The notes below the pieces were generated by a model. The model made no database searches. It saw only the letters and a program-made list of their open reading frames with translations, and was not told where the DNA came from. Below are positions 3,970 to 60,571 of a stretch of 64,000 bases of DNA, piece by piece. Origin of the DNA: a virus; IMG/VR virus record IMGVR_UViG_3300023242_000003, positions 35,592 through 99,591 of that record. One strand, given 5' to 3'. A program made the position numbers and the translations under genes. Each line of letters opens with the position of its first letter. Position 1 is the first letter of the stretch.

Positions 3970-4356
3970 ATGGGAAGAAAGAAAAAACAAGAAGTTAAAG
4001 TAAATAACAATGAATCGCTAGAGGGTTTAATGCAAGAAACCTATAACGATGCGTGTCTACAAATAAATGACGCTCAAAAAACAATCAATGAATTGTCAGC
4101 TAGCGCTACCCCAGTAGATATTGATGATTTAACTAAAGTAGCTAAAGAAAAAGGTGGTTTATTAAAAATAAAAGATTCAGCTATTAGGATAAAATTAGAA
4201 TTGGCTAAACTACAAAGCGATATCATCAAAAATAGAGGTGATGCTGAGGGTGCTATTTCTGAAAGAAGTAACGGTTCCGCATCTCTTAGTGATTTTAAAA
4301 CTATTCGTGAAATGTTGAAAAACAAAGGAATTGAAGAAGAAGAAGAAAACAAATAA
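3970..4356 (+). CDS. hypothetical coiled-coil protein
   Basis: 128-aa ORF preceded by TATTTAT motif. Confidence 0.7.
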   Translation: MGRKKKQEVKVNNNESLEGLMQETYNDACLQINDAQKTINELSASATPVDIDDLTKVAKEKGGLLKIKDSAIRIKLELAKLQSDIIKNRGDAEGAISERSNGSASLSDFKTIREMLKNKGIEEEEENK

Positions 4357-16909: not shown

Positions 16910-16968
16910 GTGTTGTTTTTTTTATTTACAAATATAAACATTTTTTACCAGGAAGTCAAACTTTAAAA

Positions 16969-17307
16969 TTAACGTAATTTACCCCAAATTACTATAACAA
17001 TACCAATAGCTATTTGAACAAAAGAAATAATTGCTATAGCCGATGTAATTAACCCTTTTTGTTTATAGATTTCATCTTTACCTTCTTTCATCTGTGAAGG
17101 TGACCAAACGTCATTTACTTTTTCAATCCATCTTGAAGTAGTCTCAAGATTTTTTTCAAGGTTTTTAACGTTACTAAGCTTTAGATTCATCTCATTAAGT
17201 TTTGTATCAAAATCAGAACGCATTTTTTCGTGGTTGTCATTTAAACGTTCTAATTCTTTTAGAACTAGTTTACTATAATCACCCCAATTATTTTTTTCTT
17301 CTATCAT
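16969..17307 (-). CDS. coiled-coil protein with C-terminal transmembrane helix
   Basis: AIAIISFVQIAIGIVIVIWG hydrophobic tail. Confidence 0.65.
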   Translation of the reverse strand: MIEEKNNWGDYSKLVLKELERLNDNHEKMRSDFDTKLNEMNLKLSNVKNLEKNLETTSRWIEKVNDVWSPSQMKEGKDEIYKQKGLITSAIAIISFVQIAIGIVIVIWGKLR

Positions 17308-18390: not shown

Positions 18391-21300
18391 TTATTCGTCC
18401 AACATTTTATCAATATCATTAATCATACTATTAACTGTTTGATTAACCTTTACTGTTTTGTCGTATATTTTAACTTTTTCAGTTGATTTATTTTTTTCGC
18501 TAGGTTTAACTGATTCAACTAAAGCATCAACCCATTTGTTTTGATATTTTTTAGTTCTTTCATTAAGTTTTTTAGATAAAATAATTTTTTCTTCTTTTAA
18601 TAATTTATCAACCCTTTTTAAAGATTCAGCAACGGTTTGTGGTTCGGTATCCGTAGTTTCTTCAGCTCCAGCTAAAGCTTCTGCTCCAGCTTCTAATTCA
18701 GCTCCAGCTTCTTCTTCTTCGCCACCAGCTTCTTCAGCTTCACCAAAATCTAAATCTTCACCACCAGCTCCACCACCACCGAATGAACCACCTAGACCAC
18801 CACTGCCACCACCTACGGCATCAGCGTCAGCTTCACCAGCACCACCACCACCAGCCATTGCCGCTTTAAAATCACCATAGATTCTATCAACTGTGTCAAA
18901 CATTCCCGTGTGTTTGATAACATTGGCCGTATTTTGTAGTTCAGCAGACGCTGCTTTTTCCATACGTTGTTCAAGTAAATCTGATTTTATTTCATCATCA
19001 GACCAACCCATAATATCTCTGTGTGCACGAGTCCATGACATAGTACCAAAACCATTACCAATATCAGATACAGCATCTTTAAGTAATGTAACTTTTTGTT
19101 GCATGTGTTCGATTTTAAGCATTTCGGCTTGAGTAGAAGGATTATTCAATGTAAGGGTAAAGTTGTCTAAATCTTCTTCAAACCCTAGAATATATAAGTG
19201 AATAATGGCAATCTTGTTAAGTTCTTGTAACATTGATTGTTGTATACGGTTAATTGTTCTAGAAAAACGAATATCTTGTATTGCTAAGTTTTTACCATCA
19301 CCAGTTGCTTCCTCAAACCCTAAAAAAGGTTTTGGAACACGTAATGCAGTAAATAAATTTCTTTGCAAGTACTCAATATCTGCAATTTGGTCCAAATTAG
19401 ATGCCCCAGGCAAAGTATCAATAGGGTTAGGTGCGTCTTCAGTTCTTACTGGAATAAAGAAATCTTGGTCGTTAGCTAATTGATTATAACGTAAATCTAT
19501 TTGCCCTGTTTGTGGGTCAGTAATAGGCATACGTTTAAATCTATCAGCAATTGTATTTACATACGCCTCAACATCAGCATCGTCAATATTACCAACATAA
19601 ATCTTATATACACGTCTTTCTGGCGCTCTTGTCACACGATAAACGAGCATTGAGTCTTCTGAAAGGATAAGTTGTTTCCATATACGTCTAGCCTTCTCTA
19701 ACACAGAATTATGTACAACGATACCATTTGCATAGAAATTATGATTATCATTTTCAACATATATATCGTATGTTTCGTGTTCACCACTTTCCTCAATTGA
19801 TTTAATCGGTTCTAAAATAAAATCGTTAGTTAACCTATTACCAATTAAATCATATTTATTTTTTTGTCTTACACTACTATCATAAAAATAAAAATAAAAA
19901 CTTTCTTGTTGTGTTTTAAATCTCCTATCACCAATACCAGAACCCTTACGAAGTCTACTACATATTTTACCAGATTTCAAACCCAAAGATTGAACTAAAA
20001 TTTTAATATCGTTAATAAGTTCTTCATTTGACAGTTCGATAGAATATCTTAGACAATCTGATTTATCTATAAATAACGAACCATCAGCGTCAATAATACC
20101 ATTCAAGAAAGCTTGTCTTACCTCCATAGAAGAAGTATAAACCCATTTAGGTATTCTTTTACTATAAACATCACCTATGAAACCCATATCTCTAAGAATT
20201 ATTGATAAAGTTTTAGAATTACAGATACCTTGTGCCATACCATTATCACCACCAGAAAATTTAATATCTCTACCAGTAATTTGATTCATATATTTAATAT
20301 ATTTTTTGTTTATTGATTTATGTTCTGATAAGGCTATAAAAACTGAATCATTGTGAACCCAACCATCACCTATTAAATAACCGAAAAATTCTGCAAATTT
20401 AGTGTCAACAAAATCGGGTATCAACCCAACATTATTCCAAAACCCATTTTTGTTTGATTCTGGTTTATTTTTAATTATTGGAACGTTAACATTATTTAGA
20501 TTAATTTTATCAACAACCAATAAATCACCTACTTTAAAATCTAGCGTATTTTTATAATCGAATTTATTTAATTCGGTATTATAATACATTATCTTATGTT
20601 CTTTAGATGCGTCTATAAAATTATGTTTGGTACTAAGTTTATAAGTTTTTTTATTACCAGAATTAACAGTATCCAATACTTTTGACAATACTTTAACTTG
20701 ATTTATCTCATCAAATGAATAAACCATATCACCAATAACAATATCTTTTATCTCCTTATACCCCTCACTTGTCTCAACTCTAGAATTATATTTTAAACAC
20801 GTACCATAAGGTAAACGTCTATCATCACCTAATAAACGGAAATGTGCAATTTGCCAAGAATTAAATTCAACATCATTACTTCTCCAGTAAAACTTAACTT
20901 TATCATTAGTTTCTTGACCATCAGTCATTTCTCTACCAGATATCATGTCAAATAACCCAGCTTCTCTACGTTCCATTTCATAATTAGGCATTTGTTTAGC
21001 ACCTAATATACCATGTGAATCGTTTATATTCAAGAATACGAAGTTATCACCGTATTTACACGTATTTCTAGTCCACATTGGAAGCGAAGTGTGTAAATCT
21101 AAACGATTAAAAAATAAGTCTTCAAGTATTCCTTTAACTCGTTTACTGTCAGAATAAATGTTAAGAACTCTACCGTGTTCATTAACCGTAGTTGATTCTT
21201 CCATCATCACATCTAAGGCAGCCGCAATTGTTGGGTAAAACTCCATAGCTTCAAAATCAGAATATGAACCAATACGTGTTGTTTCATAATTTATTGATTG

Positions 21301-54712: not shown

Positions 54713-55300
54713 TTAGATTGTTACACCTTGCAAATTTACTTCGGCTTTGTCAAAGATAAAGTTTCTATATTTGTCTTGTTTAAATTCGCACAATTTTTTG
54801 ATTTTGTTTTGTACGATTGTTAAATCTCTGCTTTTGGTTTCTTTGTACTCAATAGCTTGTAAGATTGTTTTTTTAACTACCAATCCGAAAACGTGGATTT
54901 GATTTGTTTCTTTGTTTACCTTAACACCTTTTGTAATGTGAGTATAAGCATCTTTTTGAGCATCTGACAAAGCGATTGTTTTATCATTTTGTTGTCTTAA
55001 TGCTTCTTTTACTTCTTCGCTTGACAAACGTTTTTCTAATGATGTATAAACGTTTTTGTATGCGGTTTCGATTAATTCGTTTGAATAATCTTTTTGCAAT
55101 TTTTCAAAAACTTCTTTTTGATTTTCTTGCAATACTTTGAAATCGTTTACTAAACAATTTTCGTAAGTAATACCCGCAACGATTGTTTGGTTTGATTTTT
55201 CGCCTTGTTTGTTTTCGTAGTTTTTAATACCTACAAACGATGTACCTTTGATTGTTTTCGCTACTAAAACTAAGCCTAAATTTTCTACTAATGTTTTCAT
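54713..55300 (-). CDS. hypothetical early protein
   Basis: 195 aa; own TATATTTG promoter, CCAATTAAA leader and terminator. Confidence 0.75.
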   Translation of the reverse strand: MKTLVENLGLVLVAKTIKGTSFVGIKNYENKQGEKSNQTIVAGITYENCLVNDFKVLQENQKEVFEKLQKDYSNELIETAYKNVYTSLEKRLSSEEVKEALRQQNDKTIALSDAQKDAYTHITKGVKVNKETNQIHVFGLVVKKTILQAIEYKETKSRDLTIVQNKIKKLCEFKQDKYRNFIFDKAEVNLQGVTI

Positions 55301-55542
55301 AATATTTGTGTTTTTAATTGGTTACTTAAATTTGTTATGCAAATATACAACTTTTTTTTAAACTACCAAACTTTTTAATAAGTTTTTTTTTTATTTGTTT
55401 TTTCGTTGTTTTAATTTGTTGGTACAAATATAAGAAACTTATTTCGTTCCCACAAGTTTTTTAGTTAATTTATATTCATTCTAAATAAGAAAAAAGTTTG
55501 TATTTTATTTGGTGGATTGAAATATTATTACTATCTTTGACT

Positions 55543-55600
55543 TGTCAATATGAAAGACAGGTCGCCACGAGAGTGTTGAGAGAGTAGACTCCGACACGTC
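55543..55600 (+). ncRNA. repeated structured ncRNA, copy 1
   Basis: TATCTTTG promoter then TGTC/GACA stem, TCGCCAC-GAGA-GTGTTGA stem, core GAGAGAGTAGACTCCGAC. Confidence 0.65.
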
Positions 55601-55708
55601 TTTTATTTTTTTATGGGACTGAAAAAGTTTTTTGAAAAAAGTTGTGTTTTTATTTGGTTGATTAAAATATTATTCTTATCTTTGTATCGAACCAATTAAA
55701 TAAAGGAT

Positions 55709-55975
55709 ATGACACAATTTGAACAAGCACAAAAAGACGTTAAGGAAAAAAAACTAAAAACGCCAGATGTATCAGTAGGTGGTAAACAAGTTGATTACTT
55801 CGGTTATCAGTTATCTGTTCACAAATTTAACTTATCTATTATGGCAACTGGTATGAGTTGTCGAGGAATTAAGTTTACAGATATTAAAAAGTATTATGGT
55901 TTGAAAGGACGAACCGCAAAAGATTGTTTACAGCAATTCCTTAAGATTATTGAAGATTATAAGAAAGCCCTTTAA
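55709..55975 (+). CDS. hypothetical early protein
   Basis: 88 aa; own promoter and leader motif. Confidence 0.75.
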   Translation: MTQFEQAQKDVKEKKLKTPDVSVGGKQVDYFGYQLSVHKFNLSIMATGMSCRGIKFTDIKKYYGLKGRTAKDCLQQFLKIIEDYKKAL

Positions 55976-56009
55976 GGGTTTTTTTTCCTATGTCCACAAT
56001 TGTGTACAA

Positions 56010-56065
56010 GCCGTGTTGGAGTCTACTCTCTCGCTTGTCGCAACCCGTACCTTTCTCTTTTGTAC
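56010..56065 (-). ncRNA. repeated structured ncRNA, copy 2
   Basis: TATCTTTG promoter, GTAC/GTAC stem, TTGC-GACAA-GCGA stem, core GAGAGAGTAGACTCCAAC. Confidence 0.65.
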
Positions 56066-56154
56066 ACTACAAAGATAAGATAAATAATCCACACTACCAA
56101 ATATAATGTGGATTATTTTTAAAGTTTTAATTGCGTTTAAAAAGCCAAGAAACA

Positions 56155-56469
56155 TTAGCAGTAACTTAACCCAAAATCACGTGCAAGAATTTTCAAGACA
56201 TTTTTTCTATTTAATGCTGGAATATAAATGCAATCTTGTTTTTTAGAAATGCTTTTATTTTCTTTTTTTTGTTGCATTTCATCAGAAAAAGTTATAGTTA
56301 AGTTTCTATCAAATTTTGCTTTTTCAATAGTCTTTTCGATTAAATTGACTTCAAATATTGTATGATTTTTATGTGGCTGTATTCTGCCAACTAAAATTCT
56401 TTGAATATCTTTTTTAGCTTCTTTAGTGATTTCCATTTTATCACTTTGATTTAATTCGGTTTCTTTCAT
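56155..56469 (-). CDS. hypothetical early protein
   Basis: 104-aa ORF. Confidence 0.7.
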   Translation of the reverse strand: MKETELNQSDKMEITKEAKKDIQRILVGRIQPHKNHTIFEVNLIEKTIEKAKFDRNLTITFSDEMQQKKENKSISKKQDCIYIPALNRKNVLKILARDFGLSYC

Positions 56470-56519
56470 TTTTTATTTTTTAAGGGGTTTTTACGCCCCT
56501 ATTGTTTAATTTTTTAGTA

Positions 56520-56726
56520 TTATTTAATTTCAGTTTCAAAAACTCTTTCGCCAGTTTCAATATTTACAATAGAAACAGTTCCTCCTTTGTAATTTTTAAA
56601 ATAACTTTCGCTAGTTCCGTTATTTGAATTGATATAATATTGACATTCTTCTAATGAATATTTAAAACCTTTATTATTTGAGTTGTCATTATCATCAAAA
56701 AAGACGAATAAAAAAAACTTCTTCAT
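56520..56726 (-). CDS. hypothetical early protein
   Basis: 68-aa ORF. Confidence 0.6.
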   Translation of the reverse strand: MKKFFLFVFFDDNDNSNNKGFKYSLEECQYYINSNNGTSESYFKNYKGGTVSIVNIETGERVFETEIK

Positions 56727-56928
56727 CTTCTAAGAATTTCTGACCCTCTTCTGAAAAATTATAAATAGTAGATATTAATTCATCCTTTGTCATTTTCATA
56801 AACTTTTTAAACGACTCATCAGTACTCATTGCAACTCTTCTATCTTTTGAAAAGTAAGTATCTTTTCCGCAATCATTATTTTCATTTACTAACCATTGAG
56901 TTAAAGCTTGTTTCTTAAAAGTTTTCAT
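56695..56928 (-). CDS. hypothetical early protein
   Basis: 77-aa ORF with upstream promoter. Confidence 0.6.
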   Translation of the reverse strand: MKTFKKQALTQWLVNENNDCGKDTYFSKDRRVAMSTDESFKKFMKMTKDELISTIYNFSEEGQKFLEDEEVFFIRLF

Positions 56929-57048
56929 AATTTCTATTTGTTTGAGTTTGCTGTGTAAATCACTTTCTTAATTCTTTTACAAATATAGGAATAAAAAATG
57001 ACACTACCAAATGATAGCGCCACTTTTTTGTATTTGTTTTATAACCAA

Positions 57049-57198
57049 TTAAACAAATATATTTATTAATGCTATTAACCAAATAAATATTATTATAGCG
57101 ACCGAATAAGGTCTAAATTCTGTTGTTAATCTAATTCCAGCAATTGAGTTGATTACCCATATAAGGAAAGCAACAAGTGTAAATTTGTGTAATTTCAT
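57049..57198 (-). CDS. small membrane protein (49 aa, not in ORF track)
   Basis: MKLHKFTLVAFLIWVINSIAG...IIIFIWLIALINIFV; leader motif upstream. Confidence 0.55.
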   Translation of the reverse strand: MKLHKFTLVAFLIWVINSIAGIRLTTEFRPYSVAIIIFIWLIALINIFV

Positions 57199-57220
57199 TT
57201 TGTGTGTTTTAATTGATTAA

Positions 57221-57290
57221 TGTAGTAATCAAGTGGGGATTGCCATTCAGAATAAATCCGTGCTTTCCAGAACTCTCCTTGATTACTACA
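57221..57290 (-). ncRNA. stem-closed structured leader RNA
   Basis: 13-bp perfect terminal stem TGTAGTAATCAAG/CTTGATTACTACA starting just after TATCTTTG. Confidence 0.5.
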
Positions 57291-57577
57291 CTACAAAGAT
57301 AAGGATAATATTTCTATTATCCAAATCTTTTTGCAATTATTTTTAGTATCTGCAAATATTTGTATAGTTACCAAATAAAAATGTTGATACTGAACTGTAA
57401 ACTTTGTTAATTGATTTCATAAGGTTTAAACTTTAATGTTAGTGATTATTTCTTTAGCAAAGATAAGGATAATATTTCTATTATCCAAATCTTTTTGCAA
57501 TTATTTTTAATTATTTTTATTTAATTTTTTTTACTATTTTATTTGGTAGATTAAAATATTATTCTTATATTTGTAGT

Positions 57578-57633
57578 GTTGAAAGAGCAACGGGTCGATA
57601 TGGAAATATTGAGAGAGTAGACTCCGACACGTC
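57578..57633 (+). ncRNA. repeated structured ncRNA, copy 3
   Basis: TATATTTG promoter, GTTG/CAAC stem, TCGATAT-GGAA-ATATTGA stem, core. Confidence 0.65.
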
Positions 57634-57693
57634 TATACGTTACTAGCGACAAGGCAAAAAAATCGGAGGGCACAACCCCTCCGACATTCCGAA

Positions 57694-57813
57694 CTAGATA
57701 CCGAAAATAAGCGATACCAACGTCCTACCAATTAAAAAACTTGCACAAAGGACTAGCAATGGCATAGACACTTTGTCCATAAACTTTTCAAATTTTTTAT
57801 CAATGTTATTCAT
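57694..57813 (-). CDS. small membrane peptide (39 aa, not in ORF track)
   Basis: MNNIDKKFEKFMDKVSMPLLVLCASFLIGRTLVSLIFGI; own promoter and GC-rich terminator. Confidence 0.5.
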   Translation of the reverse strand: MNNIDKKFEKFMDKVSMPLLVLCASFLIGRTLVSLIFGI

Positions 57814-57893
57814 GGCTTTTGGTTTTAATTATTATAGTACAAAGATAAGGATAATATTTCTATTATCCAAATCTTTTTGTGATTATTTTTTTA

Positions 57894-58103
57894 TTAACTT
57901 GTATAATTTTGTGTGTAGATTAACCCATCAATTTTACATTTTAAACGCTTTTTAACACGTCCATTTTTATCGGTACACGCTGATTCAGAAAATGTTTTAT
58001 AGTGTGTTGCACCGTGTCCAAATTTGATTTCTGATGCTGTTGGTTTTCTGTGGTACTCGATAGTTTTTTCTTGTACGCCAGTAATGTTAAGTGAATTTTT
58101 CAT
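57894..58103 (-). CDS. hypothetical early protein (start adjusted to MKNSLN)
   Basis: Promoter plus CCAATTAAA leader directly upstream of 58103. Confidence 0.7.
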   Translation of the reverse strand: MKNSLNITGVQEKTIEYHRKPTASEIKFGHGATHYKTFSESACTDKNGRVKKRLKCKIDGLIYTQNYTS

Positions 58104-58189
58104 TTTGTGTTGTTTTAATTGGTTCGGTACAAAGATAAGATAAAATAACCACACTACCAAATAAATGATAGTCTTTTTTTAAATTATTT

Positions 58190-58522
58190 TTAGTATGCTG
58201 ATACTGACATATTTTGATTTTGTTCATAACTCAGTCCTTCAAGTTCACCATAGGGATTAGTTAGTGAATGATAATACTTTTTAAGTCGTTCCGCTATTCT
58301 GTCTAACTTTGCATTTTGTTTATTGGTGCAAGGTTTATCAAAGGCTCTAATTGTATCATTTGCACAAACTTTGCCTAACATTCCACCACCTAAATAGTTT
58401 TGATAAGCTGACATTTTTTCTTTTTTGAATCCAAAACGTGTTAAATCTATTTCGACCCCACCACCACGACTTGAAACTTCTAGTCTTAATGTTATTTCTG
58501 AAAATTGAATTGCTTTTGCCAT
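58190..58522 (-). CDS. hypothetical early protein
   Basis: 110 aa; own promoter and leader. Confidence 0.75.
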   Translation of the reverse strand: MAKAIQFSEITLRLEVSSRGGGVEIDLTRFGFKKEKMSAYQNYLGGGMLGKVCANDTIRAFDKPCTNKQNAKLDRIAERLKKYYHSLTNPYGELEGLSYEQNQNMSVSAY

Positions 58523-58657
58523 TGTGTTTTGTTTTAATTGGTTCGGTACAAAGATAAGTAAACTATTTCAATCTACCTAATTTATTTGCAAGTATTTTTA
58601 TTTATTTTTTATGTCTTTTTATTTGGATAAGTCATTTATTATCCTTATCTTTGTAGT

Positions 58658-58713
58658 GTACAAAAGAGAAAGGTACGGGTCACGACAAGTGAGAGAGTAG
58701 ACTCCGACACGTC
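58658..58713 (+). ncRNA. repeated structured ncRNA, copy 4
   Basis: TATCTTTG promoter, GTAC/GTAC stem, TCAC-GACAA-GTGA stem, core. Confidence 0.65.
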
Positions 58714-58999
58714 TTATATTTTTTTATATATAACCATAAAAAAAATGGTGCAATATTGCACCACTTAAAATATTTAGCAAATCGGGTGGTATAAAATTAA
58801 CCCATTTAATTTGCCTAGATTAAAATATTGTTCTATGTATTCTTGTCTAGTTATTTTGCTAGTTAAAAATTTAGCTCTTAATTTTTTAAATTTAGCAATT
58901 ACTGATTTTGATACTTTTGTTTCCATTGTGTTTTATTTAATTGGTTGAAACAAAGATAAGGATAAGTTTTCACTTATCCAAATCTTTTACTAATTATTT

Positions 59000-59299
59000 T
59001 TAGTTAATATCAATTAACTTTCCGTTCCATTCTGCACCATTCAAAAACCATTTACCTTTTATTTGTACTATATGTACATTAGGTAAAGCGTTTAATCTTT
59101 CTTTTGTGGTCTTTGATTTCCAACCAGCATTGGTAATTGATAACGTTCTTTCGGGGTCATTGTATTGATATGCAATAGGATTTCCAAACAATTTAAGGAT
59201 TGTAACATTATGCAATACTTCAACTTGTGTATTGCTTGTTTTAAACGTTTCAGCATTTAAAAATTTCTCGATTGCATTTGTTGTGATAGTTCTTGACAT
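59000..59299 (-). CDS. hypothetical early protein
   Basis: 99 aa; GW-SKTTKERLNAL; own promoter and leader. Confidence 0.75.
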   Translation of the reverse strand: MSRTITTNAIEKFLNAETFKTSNTQVEVLHNVTILKLFGNPIAYQYNDPERTLSITNAGWKSKTTKERLNALPNVHIVQIKGKWFLNGAEWNGKLIDIN

Positions 59300-59370
59300 T
59301 TTGTGTATTTTTAATTGGTTAATTATTACAGTACAAATATAAGTAATTTATTTTAAACTACCAAACTTTT

Positions 59371-59550
59371 TCAGTTATTTTTTTTGACAAAAATAAGAAA
59401 ACTACCTACGCCAATTGTGCCCGATACATTAAACAATACTAATAAATTAAATAGTTGCTCATTTGTATCTACTAAAAACAACCCTGTTACCGATGATGCC
59501 ATTACAATAAGACAAGCAACTGCTAAAACTAATAATGTGCTATTTTTCAT
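59371..59550 (-). CDS. small two-TM membrane protein (59 aa, not in ORF track)
   Basis: MKNSTLLVLAVACLIVMASS...; leader identical to that of 59299. Confidence 0.55.
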   Translation of the reverse strand: MKNSTLLVLAVACLIVMASSVTGLFLVDTNEQLFNLLVLFNVSGTIGVGSFLIFVKKNN

Positions 59551-59692
59551 TTTGTGTATTTTTAATTGGTTAATTATTACAGTACAAAGATAGTAAAAAA
59601 ATCCGAACTACCAAACTTTTATGTAATTATTTTTATTTTATTTTTTTGCTATTTTATTTGCATATATCAATTATTTGTTTTATCTTTGTAGT

Positions 59693-59744
59693 GTACAAAT
59701 GAAGTACGGGTCATGACAAGTGAGAGAGTAGACTCCGACCTACC
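59693..59744 (+). ncRNA. repeated structured ncRNA, copy 5
   Basis: TATCTTTG promoter, GTAC/GTAC stem, TCAT-GACAA-GTGA stem, core. Confidence 0.65.
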
Positions 59745-59778
59745 TTATATTTTTTTTATCTAGCCATAAAAAAAACCC

Positions 59779-59976
59779 CTAATAAGGGGTTTGTGGTGTG
59801 TGTTTTTTGCCTGTGGTTACATCAACCCATTTTTGTTTTGTTTCACGTTCTACGAGCTTCTCAAGGCTTTTAATTTTCAATTCTCCAGCTTCAATCGCTT
59901 CGGCTTCAGTTCCACCGTTATCGATAATAAATTTATAAGTTTGTTTTCTTAAAATTTCTTGTACCTTTGCGTTCAT
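59779..59976 (-). CDS. hypothetical early protein
   Basis: 65 aa; own promoter and leader. Confidence 0.65.
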   Translation of the reverse strand: MNAKVQEILRKQTYKFIIDNGGTEAEAIEAGELKIKSLEKLVERETKQKWVDVTTGKKHTPQTPY

Positions 59977-60125
59977 AATTTTGTGTTGTTTTAATTGGAC
60001 ACTACAAAGATAGACAAATATTTTAAACCACCAAACTTTTTTACGCTTTTTTTTATTTTTTTTTACCTAGTAAAATAATTGCATTTTTATTTGGTTATAT
60101 CAATTATTTGTTTTATCTTTGTAGT

Positions 60126-60176
60126 GTTGAAAGAGCAACGGGTCATGACAAGTGAGAGAGTAGACTCCGACACGTC
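60126..60176 (+). ncRNA. repeated structured ncRNA, copy 6
   Basis: TATCTTTG promoter, GTTG/CAAC stem, TCAT-GACAA-GTGA stem, core. Confidence 0.65.
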
Positions 60177-60235
60177 TATACATTACTAGAACCCGAAAAT
60201 AAAAAAACCTAGAATTTATCTAGGTTTCTTTTTAA

Positions 60236-60571
60236 TTATTTTGTATATTCTGCTATTCGTTCCACTTTGGTATCAATCAATTCCGCCAAGTCATCGCAAT
60301 ATACATTTTCAAATACTGCTTTTTCGTTCCATTGACTAGATAAAAAACGAACTGTATATGTATCATCCCAAGCTAGGGTAATTAAAACAATTCCTTTGTG
60401 GTGGTGTCCCGATACTGTAAAGAATAACGCTTTGCCCTCAAACGTGGTAAAGTTTCTAGCACCCCAAGTCATAGACCACAAACGGTTTCTGTTAACCCAT
60501 TGAAGCGTTTCTTTTGCGTCAAAGTTTATTTGAACTGCTGACTGTAATACTGATAATTTTTTTGCTGACAT
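60236..60571 (-). CDS. hypothetical early protein
   Basis: 111 aa; own promoter, leader and terminator. Confidence 0.75.
   Translation of the reverse strand: MSAKKLSVLQSAVQINFDAKETLQWVNRNRLWSMTWGARNFTTFEGKALFFTVSGHHHKGIVLITLAWDDTYTVRFLSSQWNEKAVFENVYCDDLAELIDTKVERIAEYTK

Follow-up and report, generated by a model that had tools for sequence, protein, structure and literature searches.

The non-coding RNAs of phages are far less charted than phage proteins, and those of Bacteroidota phages even less so. Pseudo-ToxI of phage PhiTE and the RNA anti-CRISPRs (solitary repeats of the clustered regularly interspaced short palindromic repeat, CRISPR, type) are small phage RNAs, some of them present in more than one copy; they copy a host RNA sequence and act on a defence protein of the host in a stoichiometric manner. 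The nut sites of lambdoid phages, made up of boxA and boxB, and the put sites of HK022 are promoter-proximal hairpin RNAs with a conserved linear segment beside the hairpin, the boxB loop of phage P22 being a GACAA pentaloop. Terminator-ended small RNAs (sRNAs) that act through a seed are transcribed from a promoter and have 5' hairpins ahead of a conserved unpaired stretch and a hairpin at the 3' end, and Rfam holds orphan motifs from phages and metagenomes that are short, combine covarying helices with invariant nucleotides, occur mainly in uncultured phages and have no known function. T4-type phages reportedly carry, according to Arbiol, Comeau and Krisch in 2010, cassettes of an early promoter and a stem-loop repeated among small genes in a plastic region. 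The element treated here lies in a 64,000-nucleotide (nt) stretch of viral DNA, positions 35,592 to 99,591 of the IMG/VR record IMGVR_UViG_3300023242_000003, which is called the window below and whose own numbering is used throughout; it consists of a promoter and, directly downstream, the sequence of a short structured RNA, and it recurs six times within 4.6 kb.

This element shares features with each of the systems named. Its length, covarying helices, invariant nucleotides and occurrence mainly in uncultured phages are those of the Rfam orphan motifs, but it has its own promoter, reaches 13 copies per fragment and matches no model of Rfam 15. Like nut and put it sets a hairpin and a conserved linear segment close behind a promoter; unlike them it has no boxA consensus, mostly no downstream operon and no regularly linked N-like gene, and its conserved segment is unrelated to theirs. 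Small size and multiple copies recall pseudo-ToxI and the RNA anti-CRISPRs, although no host counterpart of the element was found in the genomes searched and its copies are dispersed single units, each with its own promoter. The T4-type cassettes are likewise repeated blocks of early promoter and stem-loop among small genes, whereas the transcribed part of the element combines an invariant core with covarying helices and is conserved in this form among many phages that are unrelated, which argues for an RNA product rather than only a recombination substrate. The layout of the terminator-ended seed sRNAs is approached as well, including a U tract in some copies, but here conservation is strongest in the loop of the 3' hairpin, the copies are multiple and restricted to phages, and no target complementarity was detected in the host genomes or the phage record.

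The reading favoured here is that the element is a free-standing small RNA made at high dose, acting in trans and titrating a conserved partner; to this statement as a whole a probability of about 0.4 is given, and the part of it that makes the element a free-standing structured phage RNA is very probable. The combination that sets the family apart is a strict invariant core of 8-12 nt between varying helices, a promoter of its own and a dosage that reaches 13 copies within 40 kb. As an RNA family it is new, absent from Rfam and from the literature searched, though as a small structured RNA of a phage it is not unprecedented.

Six copies of the element in the window

The 18-nt core of the element, GAGAGAGTAGACTCCRAC, occurs exactly six times in the window, on the plus strand from 55578, 57611, 58691, 59722 and 60154 and on the minus strand at 56015-56032, and since dinucleotide-preserving shuffles give an expectation of 0.00, chance is excluded. 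The six dispersed copies reported in a first-pass annotation made from the sequence alone are thus borne out, as is the identity of the core at 17 of its 18 positions in all six (copy 2 has A for G). In the family at large it is UAGACUCC, and not this 18-mer as a whole, that is truly invariant. Each copy starts 3-5 nt past a TAnnTTTG box, in agreement with the promoter proposed earlier, and in all six this box is preceded by a TTTG box across a spacer of exactly 20 nt. The arrangement is the two-box promoter type of Bacteroidota, and it also drives the neighbouring small genes of the window.

Two covarying stems had been described, and both are found: TGTC/GACA, GTAC/GTAC and GTTG/CAAC in stem 1 (P0 below), and TCAC/GTGA, TCAT/GTGA and TTGC/GCGA with GACAA loops, or longer stems with GAGA or GGAA loops, in stem 2 (P2), pairing being kept in both despite the sequence differences in the alignment of the six copies. 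The GACAA loops occur in copies 2, 4, 5 and 6 as well as in some relatives. The copies were also said to contain no open reading frame (ORF), and the only overlaps are indeed mechanical ORFs of 30-40 amino acids with GTG or TTG starts. As to its limits, the functional unit reaches some 10-20 nt beyond the 3' end given at first; this extension brings in a short helix, in which the 3' flank takes part, and also a U tract in copies 1, 4 and 5. A 15-mer search allowing up to 2 mismatches found no further copies elsewhere in the 99.6-kb viral record, whose completeness is estimated by CheckV at 28%.

Anatomy of the RNA and selection at the RNA level

Exact-pattern scans of IMG/VR placed the 18-mer in 19 loci, and shorter patterns gave many more loci, nearly all true matches having the same upstream context. 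A covariance model built on nine short-form copies (R1) gave 149 matches at E values up to 1 in 757 kb of fetched loci, 136 of them distinct (alignment A4), with copy 4 of the window as the top match at 72 bits; a second model (R2) was built on the R1 matches, and the E values of both are rough. The family comprises at least 136 distinct copies in about 85 viral-contig loci.

From 5' to 3' the element consists of an optional hairpin, P0, the segment A-N-GGG, a variable hairpin, P2, a purine strand, UAGACUCC and usually a short hairpin, P3. The evidence for selection centres on P2, which is highly variable in sequence and length: its outer four pairs are paired in 99.6% of cases with 57 double-change cells among the 136 distinct relatives, no shuffle out of 500 scoring as high and slid controls being 29-54% paired, so that the covariation proposed earlier from the six copies is confirmed well beyond them. 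About 40% of P2 loops are GNRA loops, GNRA-like pentaloops or loops ending in ACAA or GCAA, the remainder being of other kinds. Because P2 shows compensatory changes, tolerance of G-U pairs and GNRA loops, and because the orientation behind the promoters is fixed, selection acting at the RNA level is well supported.

P0, a 5' hairpin of 3-6 base pairs (bp), is present in 64 of the 79 copies with enough 5' sequence and is more stable than its shuffles (mean z score -1.44); it is missing from the short forms, some of which begin right at the GG. In A-N-G-G-G the A is conserved in 95% of copies and the three G in 86-96%. Between P2 and the core the distance differs by 2-5 nt among copies, and the purine strand R-A-G-A-G stands directly 5' of UAGACUCC. 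This segment is unchanged in 136 of 136 copies, both hairpins varying freely, and is followed by R (99% purine), A (83%) and C (96%). Variants of the core, namely AGGGUAGACUCC (in phage Larrie), GAGCGUAGACUCC and AGACUAGACUCC, occur in copies that the model alone detected.

The 3' flank reads CUAC or CUGC in 76 of the 136 copies and ACGU in 22. The former pairs with GUAG of the invariant strand, in a helix that can be extended (AAG-A-GUAG with CUAC-CUU), and the latter with AGAC, two bases further along the same strand; both registers display ACUCCRAC as the loop of a P3 stem of 4-7 bp. P3 is supported by three copies with C for the first G of GUAG, since all of them use the ACGU register, which leaves that base unpaired. 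It is further conjectured that the upstream GG docks on the CC of the loop, either as an H-type pseudoknot or, in the form of UCCRA plus GG, in a contact like that between the T-loop and D-loop of transfer RNA (tRNA); such a contact is sterically possible.

Other pairings were tried and set aside. A helix between the 5' end of the RNA and the 3' flank was rejected as a general feature, native duplexes scoring -4.24 against -4.13 for mismatched ones (standard deviation 0.16); a subgroup of copies has GUAGGU...ACCUAC in these places. Pairing of ACGGG with a CACGU flank showed a weak association only (U at the middle G with A opposite in 6 of 13 against 32 of 117) and was not adopted, and an extended rod fold suggested by single-sequence folding of copies 3 and 6 was rejected, its 5' partner not being conserved in relatives. 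RNAalifold returned no pairs on the model-derived alignment, which is gap-rich, and an alignment of 81 copies made with MAFFT, right-justified and misaligned in its 5' part, was not used for structure.

Two further arrangements of the element were observed in individual viral loci. In a viral contig of 4.6 kb (L112:193-401) two full copies stand in tandem, 154 nt apart. In L005:279-345 and L012:3720-3790 a GC-rich hairpin (GCAACG...CGUUGC) stands between the core and a second, partial core, UAGACUCCRAC, so that the loop region seems to have been duplicated around an inserted hairpin.

Distribution in phages and host genomes

The element is found across many uncultured viral contigs of marine, freshwater and other origin. 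Against 6 copies in 4.6 kb in the window, the densest set comprises 13 copies on both strands between positions 4081 and 24640 of an IMG/VR fragment of 39,928 bases (G304, which holds locus L002). Among cultured phages searched with R2, Tenacibaculum phage Larrie has 4 copies, in unannotated intergenic gaps, and the Flavobacterium phages FpV4 and hattifnatt9-1 have none. In the Larrie record the copies occupy 16934-16988, 18783-18837 and 19416-19469 on the plus strand and 17004-17056 on the minus strand. The DNA similarity of the window region to Flavobacterium phages such as FpV4 is distant and confined to one small gene. Contigs of metagenome-assembled genomes (MAGs) that bear the element are assigned to Saprospirales, Lentimicrobium and 'Bacteroidetes', and these contigs, together with the promoters and the relatives, point to a phage of Bacteroidota as the source of the window. 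In Larrie (ON950054, locus L210) one copy lies in a stretch of 1.1 kb without an annotated gene (record positions 19227-20364), which also contains the repeated blocks aaaggttttgttaaaattttgttaaaataaa and cagtacaaagatataaa and probably holds more unannotated small transcription units. The family is ready for inclusion in Rfam and for genome annotation, in which its intergenic gaps are now left blank.

Within the genomes searched, the element is restricted to phages. A 19-nt pattern was found in only 7 contigs, all of them from MAGs, among 185,579 species genomes. The 12-nt core is present in 28 of 301 Bacteroidota genomes, which is no commoner than its reversed control and thus at chance level. 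R2 matched 2 of 151 Bacteroidota genomes sampled, with three matches on one phage-like contig and one weak match elsewhere, none of which is an array.

The first-pass annotation had recognised no known family, and the whole window gave 0 matches at gathering score against Rfam 15. At E values up to 10, the region 55300-60500 gave four weak matches at chance level, three of which lie elsewhere in the region; the fourth, ncr1015, spans copy 6 with 25 bits against a gathering score of 60 and is not significant. No riboswitch or ribozyme model of Rfam 15 matched at either threshold, and neither a tRNA or transfer-messenger RNA in the window (ARAGORN) nor an Rfam tRNA match was found. A full-text literature search with the core returned only unrelated primers and reference hairpins, and no description of the family.

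Promoters, 3' ends and neighbouring genes

A strict TAnnTTTG box lies 28-69 nt upstream of UAGACUCC in 92 of the 136 copies and a looser form in 19 more, the rest having other promoter-like motifs; the orientation of the element relative to the promoter is fixed in all copies. In five loci (L102, L137, L157, L182 and L185) there is no TAnnTTTG and the element starts at GG right after a motif like GCTATACAC, which recurs about 20 nt downstream of the element. This motif may be a promoter of a different type, perhaps phage-specific.

A U tract (at least 7 of 8 U) follows within 30 nt in 47 of the 136 copies, among them copies 1, 4 and 5 of the window. Judging by the sequence downstream, transcripts of copies 2, 3 and 6 would run some 40-60 nt further, to hairpins that also end convergent genes.

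A rough gene call, in which orientation was judged from the longest ORFs, puts a convergent gene after the element in 39 of 63 cases and a divergent one before it in 50 of 71. Typically, then, a copy stands alone and faces a series of small genes, and five of the six in the window do so. Genes that follow in the same direction mostly have a promoter of their own, a TAnnTTTG being present before the start codon and after the element in about 30 of 46 cases; behind copy 1, the co-directional gene 55709-55975 has such a promoter. Most units are independent of the genes around them, and the RNA is usually not the leader of a gene.

Recurrent neighbours include DUF932, SprT-like and Kyano_Gp96-like genes and families without known function, as is typical of accessory regions. 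Genes of the DUF932 and SprT-like families stand next to the element at about 10 of the 85 loci each (L004:1149-2114, L054:1891-2421 and relatives); the leading regions of conjugative plasmids often carry members of these two families as well.

Function of the RNA

According to the favoured reading, each copy would be a small gene of its own, from whose host-type Bacteroidota promoter an RNA of 45-70 nt, or of about 100 nt where the U tract is absent, would be fired. The RNA would fold into the optional P0, A-N-GGG, P2, often with a GNRA-type cap, and P3, formed by the invariant GUAG or AGAC and the 3' flank, and would show an ACUCCRAC loop on whose CC the upstream GG may dock. Bulk RNA acting in trans would come from the many gene copies, probably early in infection, a timing proposed because the promoters are of host type. 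Through its invariant loop and purine strand the RNA would bind a single conserved partner and titrate it; a host protein or complex with a part in defence or gene expression is the most likely candidate. A single conserved partner is proposed because the loop and the purine strand are invariant between freely varying helices, and a stoichiometric role because gene dosage is high; the invariance extends over phages whose neighbouring genes are unrelated and whose hosts belong to several Bacteroidota lineages. The data show structure at the RNA level, confinement to phages in the genomes searched, multiple copies and independence from adjacent genes, whereas trans action, partner and purpose are what we infer. 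Taken together, dosage and conservation would imply a stoichiometric task of some importance at an early stage of infection. Knowledge of the partner could uncover a new means by which phages disarm or reprogram Bacteroidota cells, and Larrie, as a cultured carrier, makes the element testable at the bench.

A bolder reading, which must be called doubtful, is counter-defence or host takeover by RNA only, in which a compact fold, made in bulk from the many gene copies, would sequester a single conserved factor of Bacteroidota and would not be a copy of any host RNA sequence. The factor would be a defence nuclease or sensor, or an immune signalling nucleotide, and the fold a pseudoknot or a T-loop/GG contact like that of the tRNA elbow. 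If this is true, phage anti-defence would gain a new class, one that many lineages of phages have conserved.

Several points weigh against the favoured reading. In 89 of the 136 copies no U tract is near, so that many of the RNAs must be longer or read into neighbouring genes, and the transcript, its ends and its timing are themselves predictions from DNA. No protein family regularly adjoins the element, the best reaching 10 of 85 loci in the ORF clustering. As the loci were fetched with patterns containing the core, part of its invariance comes from the search itself. Because the 5' strand of P3 shows no variation, covariation cannot prove this helix, and the same holds for the invariant bases of the GG:CC contact, each pair of which is broken without compensation in 16 of 136 copies. 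Single-sequence folds of the six copies are not unusually stable (z scores of +0.6 to -1.7) and do not always return the proposed fold.

The main rival, considered unlikely, makes the element act in cis on transcription: P2 would be a pause hairpin placed a few nucleotides before an invariant pause or factor-loading sequence, as in ops, nut and put, P3 and the U tract would terminate or attenuate, and the units would be insulators or polymerase sinks, give rise to antisense read-through or modify RNA polymerase. The constant position directly downstream of a promoter in a single orientation agrees with this, as do the GACAA pentaloop that window copies share with P22 boxB and the overlap of P3 with the U tract in 47 of 136 copies, and the 89 copies lacking a nearby U tract would read into the next, often convergent, gene. 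Most copies, however, have no co-directional gene to regulate, and where one is present it usually has its own promoter; the variable spacing between P2 and the core also speaks against a pause signal of this kind, and neither a boxA-like sequence nor a regularly linked factor gene was seen at the 85 loci. An insulator, for its part, would have no need of an RNA loop that stays invariant from one unrelated phage to another.

Regulation by base pairing, with the C-rich loop ACUCC or the strand AGAGUAGA as a seed for G-rich sites in host messenger RNAs (mRNAs) or ribosomal RNA, is rather improbable. An invariant single-stranded segment, covarying hairpins and a terminator-like 3' hairpin form the usual layout of seed sRNAs, and C-rich loop seeds occur in small RNAs of Gram-positive bacteria. 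Against this, the complement of the 12-nt core is not above chance in the 301 Bacteroidota genomes or in the phage record, and for the antisense regulator among the earlier suggestions no target was found within the phage record of 99.6 kb. Invariance over 8-12 nt across host genera would moreover need an equally invariant host target, and none was seen in these genomes; a base-pairing regulator is possible only with a short seed of 6-8 nt.

Distinctly improbable is an aptamer or catalyst, that is, a small-molecule binder such as a sponge for an immune signalling nucleotide, or an unrecognised self-cleaving ribozyme. An invariant junction and loop between varying helices, GNRA-type loops able to dock, perhaps an H-type pseudoknot, and a length of 45-55 nt would suit such a role, and high copy number would suit stoichiometric sequestration, but no Rfam riboswitch or ribozyme model matches, the pseudoknot is unproven, the neighbours show no link to metabolic or signalling genes, and a ribozyme has no obvious need for a promoter-proximal start.

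It is very unlikely that the conservation belongs to the DNA, either as a protein-binding site or as a recombination cassette of promoter and hairpin that shuffles small genes. The core does contain a 10-bp near-palindrome, GAGT-AG-ACTC, and the copies lie in a plastic region of small genes, some of them being nearly identical (copies 3 and 6, copies 2 and 4), yet the compensatory changes, G-U tolerance and GNRA loops of P2 act on RNA and not on duplex DNA, the orientation to the promoter never changes, and the core persists among unrelated neighbouring genes.

Mimicry of a host RNA sequence, whether of a type III antitoxin (in the manner of pseudo-ToxI), a CRISPR repeat or part of a tRNA serving as nuclease decoy, was in its first two forms part of the first interpretation and is least credible of all, since, for all that phage mimics with precedent are small, multi-copy or repeated RNAs, that the accessory-gene setting suits counter-defence and that, by our own comparison, the UCCRA loop and upstream GG loosely resemble a tRNA T-loop meeting the GG of the D-loop, no host counterpart appeared in the genomes searched (301 for the core, 151 for R2 and 185,579 species for the 19-mer) and thus no core-bearing host locus, the copies are dispersed without tandem repeats of the antitoxin kind, and ARAGORN found no tRNA.

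Coordinates of promoters and predicted RNAs

Copy 1 (+) has its promoter at 55508-55539 (TTTG 55508-55511, 20-nt spacer, TAtcTTTG 55532-55539) and a predicted RNA at 55543-55612, with P0 formed by TGTC (55543-55546) and GACA (55556-55559), the anchor AGG at 55559-55561, P2 with a GAGA loop at 55562-55579, the core at 55578-55595, P3 formed by AGAC (55586-55589) and GTCT (55598-55601), and a U tract to 55612.

Copy 2, on the minus strand, has its promoter at 56070-56101 (TTTG 56101-56098, 20-nt spacer, TAtcTTTG 56077-56070) and a predicted RNA at 55998-56067 with P0 GTAC/GTAC, P2 TTGC-GACAA-GCGA and the core at 56032-56015, which reads CCAAC. This RNA is convergent with the plus-strand gene 55709-55975 and has no adjacent U tract, the next terminator-like hairpin being a shared one at about 55968-55990.

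In copy 3 (+), the promoter at 57542-57573 (TTTG 57542-57545, 20-nt spacer, TAtaTTTG 57566-57573) precedes a predicted RNA at 57576-57634, in which P0 is formed by GTTG (57578-57581) and CAAC (57588-57591), GGG lies at 57592-57594, P2 with a GGAA loop at 57595-57612, the core at 57611-57628 and P3 at AGAC (57619-57622) and GTCT (57631-57634). There is no U tract, and transcription probably runs on to a hairpin at about 57660-57690.

The promoter of copy 4 (+) occupies 58622-58653 (TTTG 58622-58625, 20-nt spacer, TAtcTTTG 58646-58653) and its predicted RNA 58656-58727, with P0 at GTAC (58658-58661) and GTAC (58673-58676), GGG at 58677-58679, P2 with a GACAA loop at 58680-58692, the core at 58691-58708, P3 at AGAC (58699-58702) and GTCT (58711-58714), and a U tract to 58727.

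For copy 5 (+) the promoter is at 59657-59688 (TTTG 59657-59660, 20-nt spacer, TAtcTTTG 59681-59688) and the predicted RNA at 59691-59758, comprising P0 from GTAC (59693-59696) and GTAC (59704-59707), GGG at 59708-59710, P2 at 59711-59723, the core at 59722-59739, P3 from GTAG (59728-59731) and CTAC (59740-59743), and a U tract to 59758. The P3 register of this copy, GTAG/CTAC, differs from the AGAC/GTCT of copies 1, 3, 4 and 6 and is the majority form of the family.

Copy 6 (+), finally, has its promoter at 60090-60121 (TTTG 60090-60093, 20-nt spacer, TAtcTTTG 60114-60121) and a predicted RNA at 60124-60177, with P0 at GTTG (60126-60129) and CAAC (60136-60139), GGG at 60140-60142, P2 at 60143-60155, the core at 60154-60171 and P3 at AGAC (60162-60165) and GTCT (60174-60177). 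It has no adjacent U tract; a terminator-like hairpin and T run follow at about 60205-60235.

Other promoter-associated features of the region

The mRNA of the minus-strand gene 57049-57198 apparently starts at a TAnnTTTG near 57300, which gives it a leader of about 95 nt (57200-57305, minus strand). The ends of this leader, GUAGUAAUCAAG and CUUGAUUACUAC, are complementary, and it is a long structured leader unrelated to the element family.

Three near-identical promoter blocks of about 55 nt lie on the minus strand at 57283-57345, 57458-57510 and 57838-57890, where the plus strand reads CAAAGATAAGGATAATATTTCTATTATCCAAATCTTTTTG. Between both boxes they contain an inverted repeat, GGATAATA...TATTATCC, which could be an operator or a hairpin common to the neighbouring unit.

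A further inverted repeat surrounds the TTTGG box at -33 in 56080-56115 and many related loci, as in AATCCACA...TGTGGATT, and looks like a recurrent promoter-embedded hairpin or binding site. The same promoter-embracing repeat takes the form GGAGAAT...ATTCTCC in L001 and L006, and it is found at promoters of the element and of neighbouring genes.

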